A stretch of DNA of 64,000 nucleotides from Octopus vulgaris (GCA_951406725.2 OX597837.1:22754001-22818000), one strand, 5' to 3'. Positions 7,135-63,090 are shown, numbered from the stretch's first letter. Numbers and translations are program-made. Notes: a model not told the origin generated them from the letters alone.

Positions 7135-7458
7135 ATGTGAGGTATACTTGCCATCTCTATATATGGCTAACCACTAAGGGTGAGTGTTACTGTAGCTTGT
7201 AGCCCCAGCATACGACAATCGCCGGTTTTCGAAAACCGGTGATTGTCGTACGCTGATGACAGGTCAAAACCTAGAAACTGCAGTCCGTGCGTATCACTTA
7301 GGTTGACGAGGGAAGGGTGACCTCCCTTTGCAAATACCACAAGGGCACGGAAAGTGTGCCTAAAGCCAGCTGGAGACGATGTTCTCCTGGGGCTACAAGC
7401 TACAGTAACACCCACCCTTAGTGGTTAGCCCTATTGAGATGGCAAGTATACCTCACAT
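7135..7458. mobile_element. Fold-back Penelope-like/retrozyme-like element with hammerhead
   Basis: Inverted arms about 7135-7208 and 7387-7458 enclose a 40-bp palindrome (7211-7250) and a hammerhead. Confidence 0.7.
7247..7291 (+). ncRNA. Minimal type-I hammerhead ribozyme motif
   Basis: Stem I CGTACG/CGTGCG; core CTGATGA; stem II AGGT-caaa-ACCT; GAAA; palindromic stem III ACTGCAGT; GUC site (cleavage after 7285). Confidence 0.85.
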
Positions 7459-8189
7459 TGTCGTACAGTTACTGTTTATATCTCGTTCACAGATTTATTA
7501 TTACTCACATGTGCTTGTAACACAAAACAAACAAAAACCACATTTATCTTTCCATTTATTTTTAAATGTCAGCTGTATGGCTTATAGTTTATATACTTTC
7601 AACTTGAAACAGCAAACACTGTATTTTTCTTAATTTTAAATATTCATTTATATTTCAGTAGCAAAACAAATGACAGACGTTTATTTTTAGACATATATTT
7701 TGTTTCTAAATATCTTTCAAATATCTATTATGGCAATAATATCTATGGGAGTTATCCGAATAAATCCTTTTAAATATTATATTATATTACTTTACAGATT
7801 TTTTATGATAGGAACTGATTAACTAAGTACAAAGGATTTTTCTGCATAATTCATACCATTTCCATACCAAGTTTCCAATAAGTTATGTATGTTTACTTCT
7901 TTATAAATTTTGATAAATATTCTATTGAAATATACAATATGTAAGTATGTGTATATACATGTATATTTATGTGTGTATATATATAAATACACATACACAC
8001 AAACATATATATTAATCTAAGGAATTCCAACTTTGTCTCTTTTCACATTTTATTTACAATCTTGTGATAATATAATATAATGAAATGATAGAATATTAAA
8101 TGTTCGTTCTGATTGAACTAGTACTTTCATGCATTAAACCAATATGTTCTTCTATACACTATCATACACGCCCGTGTATATATACCCAT

Positions 8190-8590
8190 AAATACACACA
8201 TATATATGTCCATATATATATATATGCATAAATACATATGTCTATATATATATATATATATATATATATATATACACACACACACATATGAATACATATA
8301 TATATGTCTATATATATATATATATACATAAATACATATGTCTATATATATACTCTTTACTCTTTTATATATATATATATATATATATATGTATATATAT
8401 ACACACACACACATATATATATACATATGAATACATATATATATATGTCTATATATATATATACACACACACACATACATATATATATACGTATATACAT
8501 ATATATATATATATCTATATATACACACACACACATACATATATATATACGTATATACATATATATATGTATATATACATACATATCTCT
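8190..8590. repeat. Compound (TA)/(CA) microsatellite with higher-order units
   Basis: Repeated aatacatatgtctata and tacgtatatacat units. Confidence 0.9.
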
Positions 8591-9030
8591 CTTTCTCTCT
8601 TTTACTTGTTTCAGTCATTTGACTGCGGCCATGCTGGAGCACCGCTTTTAATCAAGCAACTCGACCCCGGGACTTATTCTTTGTAAGCCCAGTACTTATT
8701 CTATCGGTCTCTTTTGCCGAACCGCTAAGTGATGGGGACATAAACATACCAGCATTGGTTGTCAAGCGATGGTGGGGGGACAAACACAGACATACAAACA
8801 TACATGCACACATATATATATACATATATACAACGCGCTTCTTTCAGTTTCCGTCTACCAAATCCACTCACAAGGCTTTGGTCGGCCCAAGGCTATAGTA
8901 GAAGACACTTGCCTAAGGTGTCACGCAGTGGGACTGAACCCGGAACCATGTGGTTGGTAAACAAGCTACTTACCACACAGCCACACACACATATACGCAC
9001 ACACACACACACACACATATATATATATAT

Positions 9031-9220
9031 ACATAAGGAAAAAAGTCAAGGTAGAAAATTCTAAAATAATTTAATCATAAAAAACATTTTTGGATCTGTG
9101 TTTCTGAGTATTGACCTGTCATCAGCGTGATGACGAGTCAATACCCAGTGACTTGGGTCCTAAAATGTTTTTTATGATTAAATTATTTTGGCATTTATAC
9201 CTTGATTTTTTTCATTATAC
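9031..9220. mobile_element. Fold-back element in (TA)n with head-to-head decayed hammerheads
   Basis: Inverted arms of about 95 bp; termini resemble those of 56213-56640. Confidence 0.7.
9091..9127 (-). ncRNA. Degenerate hammerhead motif
   Basis: cg-CTGATGA-caggtcaatactca-GAAA-CACAGA-TC, similar to the 7247 copy; stems partly broken; a more decayed copy runs on + at about 9127-9160. Confidence 0.55.
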
Positions 9221-59889: not shown

Positions 59890-60870
59890 TTGTTATACTT
59901 AAACAAGAATATTATTGTCAGTAACTTCAAAGTTTAATCCAGCTAATCCATCGTTGGATGGCGATGCTTTGAAGTTAATCTTGGCTTTATATAGTCTCTG
60001 TTGAGATCAAATTTTCTTTGGGTATATGAGTCCGAGTTGAATAGTAATTAGGTTGTTGGGTGGGGTCGTGATAGTGAGGTTTTCTAGAGAAATTTTTATT
60101 GATTAAATTTGGGGTTATGCTATCATTTAGAATATATTTATGCATACAAAAATATAAACAAGAAATACCCTAAATAGAATCAAATGAAGAAACTGACCAG
60201 CTAAAACATACCACCAACTTACATTCTTTTGTGAATTCTTATAAAATTCCATTACAAAAATGGTGACACAAGCAATTGATAAGTTTTGAAATATTGGTTT
60301 CCAATTTTGGCACAAGGCCAGCAATTTTTAGGGGAGGGGTAAGTCGATTACTTTATTGATGCTGAAATGATGGAAAGCAAAGTCAACCACAGTGGAATTT
60401 GAATTCAGAACGTAAGGATGAATAAGTTTTTAGATACTGGACCAAACTTTGAACTTTGACCTTTACATTGTCAAAACAAAATGATTAAATCCAATAACAC
60501 CAAAAATAATGAAAACTACTGGCACATATACTGACCAAAATACTTCCTATGCCTATATCATTTTTGTGAACTACTACAAAAGAGTCTCATGGCCAGAAGC
60601 TGACACACCTAAATATACACAACTGTTTACAAAGTTCAACATGCATGAATACACTCTAAACAATAACAATAACATAACCCCAAGTTTAATCAATAAGAAT
60701 TTCTCTAAAGCATTCACTGTCACAACCCATTCTGCAACTTGATTACCACTCAATTCAATTCAAACCCACACACCCAAGATTAACTCCAATGCAACAAAGT
60801 GTGATGATGGCCTCATCTGGCTGAACCTTCAAAGTTACCATCAAAAACATTCTTGTATAGGAATAATGAA
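59890..60870. repeat. Old, diverged inverted-repeat element
   Basis: 59890-60120 is an inverted match to about 60670-60870 (e.g. ttattgattaaatttggggttatg / cataaccccaagtttaatcaataa). Confidence 0.6.
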
Positions 60871-61509
60871 CTTGTACTCAACAAAAATATAGTGTAAGCA
60901 ATCAGAATAATATAAAATTGCCATTATTATAATTGAACATCAAAACAAACACTATATATATATGTAAATCCTCCTCATCATCATCATCATTTAACGTCCG
61001 CTTTCCATGCTAGCATGGGTTGGACGATTTTGACTGAGGCCTGGCAAACCAGATGGCTGCACCAGGCTCCAATCTTGATCTGGCAGAGTTTCTACAGCTG
61101 AATGCCCTTCCTAATGCCAACAACTCTGAGAGTGTAGTGGGTGCATTTTACGTGCCACCAGCACGGGGGCCAGTCAGGTGGTATGGCAACGACCTTGCTT
61201 GAATGTTTTTTCATGTGCCATATATATATATATATATATACATATATATACACACACACAAACACATGCACACACAACACACACATATACACTTATGTAC
61301 ACATACACACACACATATATAAACTTGGGAAATTTAACTGTGGACTGTTGGGGCTGCCACCTACAGATGTTTTTGGTGTGAGGGAGAAAGTTTACTAAGA
61401 AATAAAGGAGAGGGTAAAGATTCCCTTTTAGGGGAGAGAACTGCTTCAGGGTTTATATGTATATGTGTGTGTGCGTGTGTATATATATATACATATATAT
61501 ATATACATA

Positions 61510-62777
61510 CAAGGGTCAGACAAAATAATGGAAACACCTAGCGTCATAGCATCATAATTTTGAAATATCTACAAAACTGTAAAAAGCTTGTTTATTTTTA
61601 TGTTTTTTGATTTATTATTAGTGTTGCTTAATATGTTTTGCTAAAATTGCTGTTTCTTTTCAGACATCATCAGAAAAAGGTAATTAAAATTCATTAAAAT
61701 GACAGATCTATCAGACTTTCAAAGAGGTGCTAGTGTAATAAAAACAGCCTAAGTGCTTGGTATATATATAGTAATATATAATGACAGCCTTTCAGAAAGA
61801 GGGAAAAACCTCCTTGTTGTAACAAAACTCTGGAAGAAAACCCAAACTTTGAGATAGGGACTGTCAGACTTTTATGCAAATTGTTAGAAAAGATCACAAA
61901 AGTGCAGCTCCCAAAATTACTGCAGAGCTTAGAGAAAGCCAGAATTTAGAGAAACCACCTAGAGAAAGCCAGTTTCCACAAAAAATGTTCACTGGGAGCT
62001 GCATAAAGCCAGATTTCACAGGAGAGCTGCAATCAGAAAACTACTACTTTGAAAAACAAATGTTGCAAAGAATTTAGAGTGGAGTAAAAACTTATAGAAT
62101 TGGTCCCTAGAGCAGTGGAAGAATGCTATTTTCTTGGACAAGCTATCTTTTACCTTATTTTTGACCACCAGCCGAGTATACGTGTGGAGACAGCCAAAAG
62201 AAGCATTTGACCCAGACTACCTTCTTCCAACTGTTAAACATGGAGGAAGATCTGTGATGATCGGGGGGGGGGGGGGGCTATATCTTGGAGATCTGCCGAC
62301 CCAATGGCTTCCCTTCATGGCAGAATTCACAGTCAAGACTATTTAAGCATTTTATCTGATCAAATTCATCCTATGGTTGCAGAACAGTTTCTGGAGGGAA
62401 ATGGAATCTTTCAGGATGATAATGCACCAATTCACACAGCCAAAGTTGTTACTGAATGGCACGAGGAAAATTCTAGTGAAGTTCAACATCTTATCTGGCC
62501 ACCATAGACCCCCCAGATCTAAATATTATTGAACATTTACAGTACATTTTAGAAAAACAAGTAAGGAGTCGATATCCTCCACCATCAATACTACAAGAAC
62601 TGGAAACTGTTTTAGCTGAAGAATGGACAAAAATTCTTTTGGAAACAATTCAAACTTTATACGAGTCCATACCTCGTAGAATTCAAGCTGTAATTACTAC
62701 CAAAGGTGGTCCTACCCCATATTAAAATAAATTTGTTTGAAATTTTAAGGTGTTTTCATTATTTTGTCCAACCCCTT
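61510..62777 (+). mobile_element. Tc1-like (DD34E) transposon, full-length but decayed
   Basis: TIRs caagggtcagacaaaataatggaaacacct / aggtgttttcattattttgtccaacccctt in TA context; PTVKHGG.SVM, FQDDNAPIH, WPP...PDLNIIE motifs. Confidence 0.92.
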
Positions 62778-62872
62778 ATATATATATATATATATATAAT
62801 ATATATATATATGTATATACATATATATACATATATATATACATATATATATATACATATACATATATATAT

Positions 62873-63090
62873 ATTAGACAAAAGAGATAACACAGCCAAG
62901 GCTATGAGTTTTCAGGACATTTATAAGGAGATACAGATATAGTCTTACAGCTGTTTCTGGGATATGGATATCCCTTCATCAGAGAAGTTGTGAGATAGTT
63001 AGAGGAAAATATTTGAAGTAAATGTTTTGAACTCAAACATTTACCGCTATTTAACCATCTCACATCGTCTCTGATAAAGGGATATCCATA
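62873..63090. mobile_element. Penelope-like terminal fragment with hammerhead and truncated inverted copy
   Basis: Hammerhead at 62943-62985; inverted partial copy tctctgataaagggatatccata at 63068-63090. Confidence 0.65.
62943..62985 (-). ncRNA. Minimal type-I hammerhead ribozyme motif
   Basis: Minus strand reads tct-CTGATGA-a GGGAT atccat ATCCC a-GAAA-CAGCTG-TA-aga; palindromic stem III ACAGCTGT. Confidence 0.8.

Follow-up and report, generated by a model that had tools for sequence, protein, structure and literature searches.

Fold-back insertions with type-I hammerhead motifs in Octopus vulgaris are probably truncated ends of Penelope-like elements

In this study, we analysed a stretch of 64,000 nucleotides of Octopus vulgaris DNA (GCA_951406725.2, OX597837.1:22754001-22818000; the window) and found ~15 fold-back elements, several of which carry type-I hammerhead motifs. 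These fold-backs are probably (roughly 0.8) the dead remains of insertions, heavily truncated at the 5' end, from several Penelope-like element (PLE) families with an endonuclease, the hammerhead being the family's ordinary terminal ribozyme. An earlier note on this DNA had proposed PLE terminal pieces with type-I motifs and palindromic helix III in (TA)n, and this is still the best reading. It is supported by outward polarity, one-sided tails, (TA)n flanks, the multiple copies and 5' continuation of one family (family A), and compensatory changes.

Fourteen fold-backs were delimited from self-BLAST, with boundaries set by eye, and the old element P was recognised afterwards (Table 1). The shared architecture that had been claimed is confirmed, and arm identity was 84-100% in the 12 elements measured. 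A hammerhead reads outward in 8 of the 14 fold-backs tested and inward in none; the remaining six lack one. Thus, the inverted copy is joined at its 5' end and the 3' ends point outward, as in PLEs. The association with (TA)n also held: (TA)3+ borders 18 of 28 element ends, which covers 12 of the 14 elements, while its frequency at random positions is 8.9%; E and R are the fold-backs outside (TA)n. One-sided tails are present in eight elements (E, A1, A2, B2, C1, C2, D2 and K), mostly 55-80 nt long and therefore above the 30-40 nt described for PLEs; those of E (44 nt) and B2 (~30 nt) are shorter. The sequences had been called mostly unrelated, but pairwise similarity groups some of them into families A (15556, 55826), B (9017, 56213), C (54762, 53022) and D (55459, 31576), the latter two weakly supported at ~66% similarity. 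Likewise, the suggested density of about one element per 5 kb conceals an uneven distribution, with 7 of 15 fold-backs within 4.7 kb (52.9-57.6 kb) and one per 7.4 kb elsewhere; intact hammerhead motifs number ~1 per 10 kb in this window. As stated before, the elements contain no ORF: a search of the window's stop-free, non-microsatellite frames (the longest 300 out of 426) matched neither RT nor GIY-YIG, which is expected for short truncations. The 11-nt repeat flanking E is likely a target-site duplication, the last 5 nt of which are also part of the inverted arm.

Table 1. Elements, motifs and repeats in the window, in nucleotides from its first letter.
Feature	Position	Strand	Description
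Core 2354	2354..2383	+	5' core, 3-bp helix II, G12>A, 6-nt palindrome, no helix I; outside any fold-back; E 1.34, unsupported
P	2975..3500		old fold-back, arms ~65-70% alike (score 28, null maximum 18.5 of 200); degenerate outward hammerhead 3150->3102 (minus)
E direct repeat	7129..7139, second copy 7503-7513	+	11 nt
E	7140..7502		left arm (hammerhead removed by a 134-nt internal loss) and right arm around a 50-nt hairpin, then a 44-nt tail 7459-7502; outside (TA)n
E hammerhead	7238..7298	+	best of window, core at 7253, cleavage predicted after 7285; helix I of 6 bp and 5-6 bp separated by an internal loop, helix II of 4 bp, helix III an 8-nt palindrome
B1	9035..9215		fold-back within (TA)n, arm identity 84%; each arm bears a decayed outward hammerhead, and since the fold point is at the core, the 5' strand of helix I is absent
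A1	15476..15932		inserted in (TA)n; ~80-nt tail 15476-15555, then the long arm (minus) to 15809 and the short one 15810-15932, 96% identical to each other
Family A hammerhead	15705..15764	-	core 15758 with a helix II in two parts and a helix I of 6 bp; predicted cut after 15711
F	16879..17149		fold-back, arms 90% alike, (TA)n on left; hammerhead not found
D2	31523..31712		short fold-back, ~55-nt tail, in (TA)n; hammerhead not found
R	42651..43340		one inverted copy and, on the plus strand, two copies head-to-tail at a distance of 350 nt; outside (TA)n; hammerheads 42745 (minus) and 43109 (plus, G12>A)
C2	52935..53428		fold-back, tail related to C1; hammerhead not found
H	53835..54268		old fold-back (85%); both arms carry an outward half core, 53951 (minus) and 54154 (plus), consisting of the 5' core and a short helix II but lacking GAAA
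I	54316..54497	+	single arm ending at (TA)n; min-HHR-type motif 54372-54398
C1	54690..55085		youngest fold-back, arms identical (0 mismatches in 155), ~75-nt tail on left; hammerheads 54897 (minus, predicted cut after 54863) and 54953 (plus, predicted cut after 54987)
J	55137..55445	-	heavily decayed region; score against 54372 20, null maximum 18 (weak)
D1	55461..55728		fold-back in (TA)n, arms 94%; hammerhead not found
A2	55834..56183		family A insertion truncated before hammerhead; tail and tail-less end as in A1
B2	56213..56672		fold-back, arms 99%, ~30-nt tail; left arm lacks 12 nt over cut site; motif 56550: U3-A8-type core, helices II + III, no helix I
K	57249..57543		fold-back, arms 97%, ~65-nt tail; decayed hammerhead 57384 with a 9-nt odd palindrome, helix I of 6+3 bp and two changes in the core
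L	62875..63090		hammerhead 62982 (minus) with a helix I of just 3 bp, a helix II of 6 bp and an 8-nt palindrome, predicted cut after 62946; inverted arm ends within loop II

Family A, the one family compared with public contigs, gives the clearest view of how the copies were truncated. A1 and A2 have exactly the same tail-less end and tail boundaries; however, their fold points differ. A2 stops before the ribozyme, A1 ends beyond it, and contigs run further 5': in two runs, 20 and 23 contigs leave the window sequence at 15809 into one common upstream sequence, and the longest extension 5' of the fold point is 239 nt (one contig). Ordinary 5' truncation fits these copies, given their differing fold points and the 5' continuation of the family; the earlier proposal of independent non-autonomous derivatives or retrozymes is not borne out on the same grounds. 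Contig depth at the family A hammerhead was ~4,000-7,000x that of single-copy flank in two DNA-like runs, to be read as an order of magnitude only, and shows a copy number in the order of thousands. Moreover, in A2 the family sequence extends ~17 nt further 5' on the tail-less arm than on the tailed one. Since each arm contains family sequence absent from the other, two rounds of template copying explain A2 better than a single cDNA folded on itself.

Covariation, a check suggested previously, was found in helix II, in few pairs overall. In family A, variants at 15743 and 15734 occur at equal depth in two runs and change a U-A into a C-G pair, and between the R copies helix II differs by a compensatory G-C/A-U pair. 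Pairing is also preserved by the G-C to G-U variant at 15728, whereas the variant at 15764 breaks the last helix I pair with no partner change among the variants listed.

It is unlikely that some or all of the families are instead non-autonomous ribozyme units of 300-500 nt (non-LTR retrozyme monomers or PLE-dependent SINE-like units) mobilised in trans by PLE proteins. Non-LTR retrozymes are similarly non-coding, PLE-related, a few hundred nucleotides long and equipped with a type-I hammerhead, as described in PMC7229834 and in the preprint of Li, Clavereau and Pollet (2026). In favour of this reading, no coding remnant lies beside the elements in the frames searched (300 of 426), the family A 5' extension reaches only 239 nt, helix I is extended with an internal loop in E and R43109, and the 350-nt spacing of the R copies equals the mussel retrozyme repeat size. 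However, retrozymes are described as head-to-tail tandems with a ribozyme per unit and circular RNAs (PMC7229834), whereas the insertions here are head-to-head, with variable 5' ends within families A and B. Only R has a partial tandem, as could form a pseudo-LTR, and approaches the retrozyme dimer form; its first unit is cut inside loop II, and such partial tandems are also standard in PLEs. No tandem array with a hammerhead per unit was seen in the window, and the predicted cut site never coincides with an element end.

Long inverted arms, TA flanks, the absence of ORFs and the six of 14 fold-backs without motif would also suit TA-targeted derivatives of DNA transposons such as MITEs, in which the hammerhead-like motifs would be incidental. 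We regard this as very improbable: the one-sided tails and differing fold points in family A do not agree with fixed, symmetric terminal inverted repeats, and the strict outward polarity, the 5' continuation in other copies and the compensatory changes also speak against it. For family A it is largely refuted.

Truncated PLE insertion, the preferred reading, can be tied to a mechanism known from the Poseidon PLE of Anolis carolinensis, PAc. In that element, an optional tail is delimited by the two fixed sites at which RT starts, AT-rich DNA is nicked and extended on both strands, and the ribozyme lies ~90 nt from the RT start (PMC11167929), comparable to the ~60-175 nt between predicted cut sites and the tail-less ends in the window. 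The ORF of PAc begins inside the ribozyme (PMC11167929), whereas no convincing ORF start was found downstream of the window hammerheads. By extension from this biochemistry, an RT/GIY-YIG protein would nick AT-rich DNA on both strands, and reverse transcription would begin at two fixed RNA sites, the distal one yielding the tailed and the proximal one the tail-less arm (PMC11167929). Both copies would stop after ~100-250 nt and then be joined 5' to 5'. Each insertion would be laid down as two head-to-head copies of the PLE 3' end, in which the hammerhead is retained if the copying extended that far.

In the parent RNA, the ribozyme is predicted to cut mainly as a dimer via palindromic helix III; the active fold of the strong sites lies, by folding models, 3.8-10 kcal/mol above the monomer minimum. 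In genomic copies most motifs would be inactive passengers, decayed or paired into a long hairpin, and read-through RNA over the fold-backs is predicted to form hairpins of 55-190 bp on either strand. On paper, the A1 motif may be an exception, as it sits in the unpaired spacer of its fold-back. Such hairpins and the A1 spacer ribozyme might suggest that the host keeps copies as functional RNA (A-to-I editing hairpins, small RNAs, or ribozymes cleaving a host transcript). This is highly unlikely: arm identities of 84-100% and CpG-decay-type changes in the cores of older copies are what neutral decay would give, and neither a host exon nor a transcript strand was identified.

The motifs themselves were searched in several ways. 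Five complete cores had been reported and all are present with helices I-III, at 7253(+), 15758(-), 54897(-), 54953(+) and 62982(-); however, they represent four insertions, because two of them are the arms of C1, and helix I of the L motif is decayed. The core reported at 15711 had been read with a 6-nt palindrome, which mismatches the first helix I pair; an 11-nt odd palindrome (4 bp and A-U around a 3-nt loop) with the 6-bp helix I is the better parse. A strict type-I descriptor, recommended earlier for a genome-wide search and run here on the window, returned seven sites (the five cores, 42745(-) and a weak 20314(-)), with a mean of 0.083 and a maximum of 2 in 300 block-wise dinucleotide shuffles. 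With a graded score, hand-set from the consensus and given one offset after element K was seen, E was <0.005 at seven sites (the five cores, 42745(-) and 43109(+); 306 shuffles), followed window-wide by 3150(-) and 54372(+) at E 0.04 and 0.07. The type-I pattern (CUGANGA, GAAA and NUH core, type-I order, helices I and II) is present at seven sites. Sites in elements R (42745/43109) and K (57384) had not been listed before. The bare heptamer CTGATGA was not significantly enriched (15 against 9.8 expected; 27 of 300 shuffles reach that count). No Rfam hammerhead model reached its gathering score, in agreement with the expectation that standard annotation misses these ribozymes; 7253 and 15758 gave no match, and below threshold only HH9 appeared (21.8 and 16.4 bits against 52). 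The same scan gave many miRNA-family matches under gathering score.

The claim of at least five decayed or half cores stood in part. The 9091/9125 core of B1, the best parse of which leaned on padding, resembles core 7253 (90% over 29 nt), and 56550 in B2 (Rfam HH9 E 3; window-wide E 0.52) is supported by its position inside its own fold-back (p 0.007). Region J (55350) is, judging from its weak similarity to 54372 alone, likely a relative of element I. However, 2354 found no support, none is significant window-wide, and 9091/9125, 53940/54155 and 55350 fall outside the top 28 graded sites, 53940/54155 being the half core of H (p 0.58). Chance matches in AT-rich, repeat-rich DNA, to which the heptamer count, the insignificant decayed sites and the empty Rfam result might point, may account for 2354, 20314, 55350, 57006 and the H half cores, but as a general explanation have next to no probability and are refuted for the seven strong sites by seven full motifs against 0.08 expected, polarity and compensatory changes.

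Truncated metazoan PLE hammerheads, including opposite-strand pairs 100-700 bp apart, have been published (PMC4209133). They resemble the window motifs in their type-I order, palindromic helix III and many unrelated dispersed families per genome, and their set includes a U3-A8 core variant, as at 56550 (PMC4209133). The min-HHR of this set has little or no helix III, an extra base 9/10.1 and a conserved G10.1-C11.1 pair (PMC4209133). Calling the window hammerheads minimal was therefore mistaken: the strong sites carry 8-11 nt palindromes in helix III without a G-C closing pair, and only 54372, with its G-C closing pair, 4-nt palindrome and damaged 5' core, fits. Octopus is absent from the searched text of PMC4209133.

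Closer parallels are the Hydra-clade PLEs, with a (TA)n preference, a hammerhead ~50-100 nt from the 3' end and 8-9 nt even or odd palindromic helix III (PMC8557442). Similarities include (TA)n targets, palindromic helix III, an inverted 5'-truncated copy, an optional tail and a helix II whose basal pair is A-U or mismatched, and the window motifs except 54372 resemble the 'canonical HHR motifs' of File S2; the 9-nt palindrome of K is identical to that listed for Penelope-3_HM (PMC8557442). Contrary to the novelty implied before, a hammerhead-bearing octopus PLE targeting (TA)n, Hydra-1_Obim of Octopus bimaculoides, is already curated (PMC8557442 supplement). Its hammerhead motif matched no window element by motif search, none of 11 12-mers taken from the elements occurred in the published PLE consensus set (PMC8557442), and the tails here are often longer. 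Going by motif shape, there is about an even chance that several families descend from a Hydra-type clade, the most likely parent. The cephalopod Naiad PLEs (Naiad_Ovul, Naiad_Esco; HHR_half_core), with (TA)n targets, a half core near the 3' end and old copies, are a possible parallel for element H, the sequence of which matched the Naiad_Obim/Ovul 3' ends in PMC8557442 neither by 12-mer nor by eye.

In summary, the elements are likely of a known kind, PLE hammerhead debris as catalogued in octopus, among which the local density stands out. New here are families resembling no published octopus consensus checked, the high local density, and the A2 insertion with its apparent two copying events, a small in-genome footprint bearing on how PLE inverted insertions form. 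For annotation, the families are missed by Rfam, and a MITE or microRNA finder would mislabel them. For comparison, hammerheads number ~6,000 in a coral, ~5,000 in a mussel and ~9,000 in Xenopus; the axolotl, whose genome is far larger, has up to 120,000. We offer only as a doubtful speculation that octopus bears the densest animal hammerhead load, with at least 10^5 ribozyme fold-backs from many PLE families, made by twin priming from one PLE dimer and recognised via a 3'-terminal motif common to unrelated families, and that their perfect hairpins might supply dsRNA genome-wide for cephalopod A-to-I editing while spacer ribozymes such as that of A1 might cut host transcripts. Should the rest of the genome be as dense as this window, natural hammerhead variants and long RNA hairpins would be very abundant in octopus.

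Fold-backs with hammerhead ribozyme motifs are real and well supported in this AT-rich window (GC 34%, with abundant dinucleotide microsatellites). Self-BLAST detected a set of local inverted repeats, from which 14 elements of 181-690 nt were delimited, with boundaries drawn by eye. An old fifteenth fold-back (P) was recognised afterwards, and all 15 together cover 8.7% of the window. Of the 28 element ends, 18 had three or more TA units, in 12 of the 14 elements, compared with 8.9% of random positions; E has copies of an 11-nt direct repeat at its two ends instead. Eight elements possess a one-sided extension (tail) of about 30-80 nt. 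The family A insertions A1 and A2 have their exact tail-less end and their tail in common and differ in fold point, and R contains a partial tandem in addition. The window also harbors an unusually long (TA)n-rich tract and at least eight near-complete copies (77-91% identity) of a SINE-like repeat, probably an octopus SINE (see table). A decayed Tc1-like DNA transposon was recognised by eye from its terminal inverted repeats of ~30 nt and a DDE-like stretch; its fragments gave no Pfam match.

Positions of fold-backs and other repeats in the window
Feature	Position	Remark
E	7140-7502	fold-back
B1	9035-9215	fold-back, family B
A1	15476-15932	fold-back, family A
D2	31523-31712	fold-back, family D
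R	42651-43340	fold-back
C2	52935-53428	fold-back, family C
C1	54690-55085	fold-back, family C
A2	55834-56183	fold-back, family A
B2	56213-56672	fold-back, family B
K	57249-57543	fold-back
L	62875-63090	fold-back
P	about 2975-3500	fold-back, old
I	54316-54497	single arm
J	55137-55445	region
Cluster	52900-57600	
SINE-like repeat	1174-1571	~400 nt
SINE-like repeat	8596-8984	~400 nt
SINE-like repeat	11490-11940	~400 nt
SINE-like repeat	35258-35640	~400 nt
SINE-like repeat	39203-39610	~400 nt
SINE-like repeat	50715-51117	~400 nt
SINE-like repeat	52046-52419	~400 nt
SINE-like repeat	53435-53833	~400 nt
(TA)n-rich tract	21001-22602	1.6 kb
Mariner-type fragment	27090-27296 (-)	Pfam Transposase_1, E 2e-15
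Tc1-like transposon	61510-62775	decayed

A type-I hammerhead descriptor based on the generally known core motifs found 7 sites; the average over 300 shuffles, made in 1-kb blocks, was 0.083. With a graded score (306 shuffles), seven motifs, named by core position and strand, reached E<0.005: 7253+, 15758-, 54953+, 54897-, 62982-, 43109+ and 42745-. All five complete cores claimed in an earlier note are among these strong sites, but they represent only four insertions; the core placed at 62943 has a helix I of only 3 bp, and for the one at 15711 an 11-nt palindrome with a 6-bp helix I makes the better parse. Weaker sites were 3150- (E 0.04), 54372+ (E 0.07), 56550+ (E 0.52) and 2354+ (E 1.34). 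The last two had been proposed as decayed cores; the decayed cores proposed at 9091, 53940/54155 and 55350 fell outside the top 28. Site 20314 passed the strict descriptor with a graded score of only E 6, and a heptamer at 20684, which falls in a SINE copy, was dropped.

In all seven strong sites helix III is self-complementary over 8-11 nt and its self-duplex is predicted at -5.8 to -13.9 kcal/mol; the active fold of the monomer lies 3.8-10 kcal/mol above the predicted minimum. Metazoan motifs that act as dimers have been described with this pattern. The expectation that standard annotation would miss these ribozymes was borne out: Rfam left the strong sites undetected and returned weak Hammerhead_HH9 rows only at 56988 and 56536. 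The former (56988-57063, plus strand; 21.8 bits with E 0.056 for a search of 4.7 kb; E 0.38 by our own score) is not part of any fold-back. Among the 150 of 365 Rfam rows listed for the whole window there were only microsatellite-driven miRNA matches, and all 83 rows for 52.9-57.6 kb were free of twister. MAFFT gave no in-register alignment of eight motifs. Core changes of the CpG-decay type, which passengers would be expected to show, occur in older copies (43109, 2354, probably 57384), and the R copies differ in helix II by a compensatory G-C/A-U pair. The ribozyme core region of E (7250-7278) is near-identical to that of B1 (9100-9128; 29 nt, 90%) with unrelated 3' ends, and B1 and B2 have 3' ends in common with different motifs. 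Possibly, modules have been exchanged between families.

To score polarity, each of the 14 elements was split at its fold point. A significant outward motif was present in eight (E, B1, A1, R, C1, B2, K, L), a score reached by 0 of 150 shuffles, with the caveats that scores were hand-set, that one offset was added after seeing K and that padding was used in the best parse of B1. An inward motif was found in none of the 14 (lowest p 0.086).

The best reading, to which we give a probability of roughly 0.8, is insertion by Penelope-like elements (PLEs), with steps drawn by analogy from an anole element. The PLE protein, with reverse transcriptase (RT) and GIY-YIG endonuclease, would nick both strands of AT-rich DNA; two primings would occur at two fixed sites close to the RNA's 3' end; and both copies would terminate early before being joined 5' to 5'. 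According to two studies, PLE insertions consist of a 5'-truncated copy with an inverted 5'-truncated copy at its 5' end and an optional tail (PMC8557442), and the tail marks two fixed RT start sites (PMC11167929); the fold-backs of the window have this published structure. Cervera and De la Pena (2014; PMC4209133) likewise describe dispersed motifs that number in the thousands per genome and that they ascribe to truncated PLEs, with opposite-strand motif pairs 100-700 bp apart. In Octopus bimaculoides, Hydra-1_Obim is complete, targets (TA)n and has, close to its 3' end, a canonical hammerhead; the Hydra-clade motifs tabulated in that study have the same shape as those of the window (Craig et al., 2021; PMC8557442). 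An argument from the window itself comes from A2, in which the tail-less arm carries ~17 nt of 5' family sequence absent from the tailed arm, which in turn carries the tail; thus, in this one case, neither arm was copied from the other.

Among 426 frames, the longest 300 were searched and contained no RT or GIY-YIG fragment; PLE membership is therefore argued from architecture and not from the defining ORF. The same frame search yielded the mariner-type transposase fragment. The window lacks the motif of Hydra-1_Obim, and 0 of 11 element 12-mers occurred in the consensus files of PMC8557442, where line breaks can conceal a match. JGI metagenomes and IMG/VR, prokaryote-centred and uninformative for an animal, gave 0 matches. 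The accessible part of a 2026 O. vulgaris annotation lists 31 recently active Penelope-like families without mention of ribozymes. A dedicated octopus or cephalopod hammerhead survey was not found in the accessible literature; Repbase/Dfam, subscription papers and bioRxiv supplements, outside this search, may list these families.

From 24 listed runs of public contigs, four were chosen and aligned to 15000-15990 at 80% likeness. In two DNA-like runs summed depth was ~52 on the unique flank vs 210,000-372,000 over the hammerhead of A1, a ratio of ~4,000-7,000 that gives an order of 'thousands' only and no copy number. Twenty contigs of run X1 and 23 of X3 leave the window at 15809 into one common sequence, and in X9 a contig of 434 nt reaches 239 nt further 5'. 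A1 is thus a truncated part of a longer sequence. The short arm of A1 had seemed to skip, as if spliced, a 111-nt GT..AG stretch containing the whole ribozyme. This idea was rejected because family contigs track the long arm to 15809 and then run on, so that 15810 is simply where the short arm begins. In A1 and A2 alike the short arm begins at one family position (15810 and 55977; 2 of 2), possibly a preferred junction. Among the 40 of 65 variant rows listed, none changes the core and six lie in or next to the motif: 15743 and 15734 (of equal depth within X7 and within X9) convert a helix II U-A to C-G, 15728 converts G-C to G-U, 15737 is a loop position, 15764 disrupts helix I at its outermost pair unless a partner change is among the unlisted rows, and 15768 is just beyond the motif. 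X7 and X9, only presumed to be RNA, do not count here as evidence for transcription or editing.

Predicted folds of read-through RNA place the ribozymes of C1, E, L and R within the paired hairpin; that of A1 lies in the spacer, where the predicted minimum-energy fold differs from the active fold. One-arm internal losses between short direct repeats (7256-7389 absent from the left arm of E, 56573-56584 from that of B2) removed the ribozyme or cut site; the RT may have skipped a structured region, or the deletion may have come later. Truncation exactly at the cut site was not seen: the A2 arms begin ~9 and 25 nt downstream, and the internal loss of E ends 105 nt downstream. The tail ends of A1 (15476-15500), A2 (56160-56183), D2 (31523-31545), C1, C2 and B2 carry a similar A-T-C-C-T type motif, in 6 of the 11 ends inspected (four families), located ~8-15 nt in from the outer end. 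It could be a shared terminal signal, with a similar one at the published Naiad_Obim 3' end; it was picked after the data were seen, and about 3% of random windows of 30 nt contain variants of it.

Published hammerhead counts reach up to 120,000 in axolotl, against about 9,000 in Xenopus, >6,000 in Acropora and about 5,000 in Mytilus. The window seems to be denser, which for a single window with a local cluster supports no genome-wide claim. The fold-backs are unevenly spread, with 7 of 15 within 4.7 kb; in this cluster they are chained with elements I and J via short (TA)n runs. The cluster suggests repeated insertion at one AT-rich spot. Arm identity ranges from 84% to 100% in the 12 fold-backs measured, with 0 mismatches in 155 in C1, and insertion has thus been long-lasting and has continued up to recent times.
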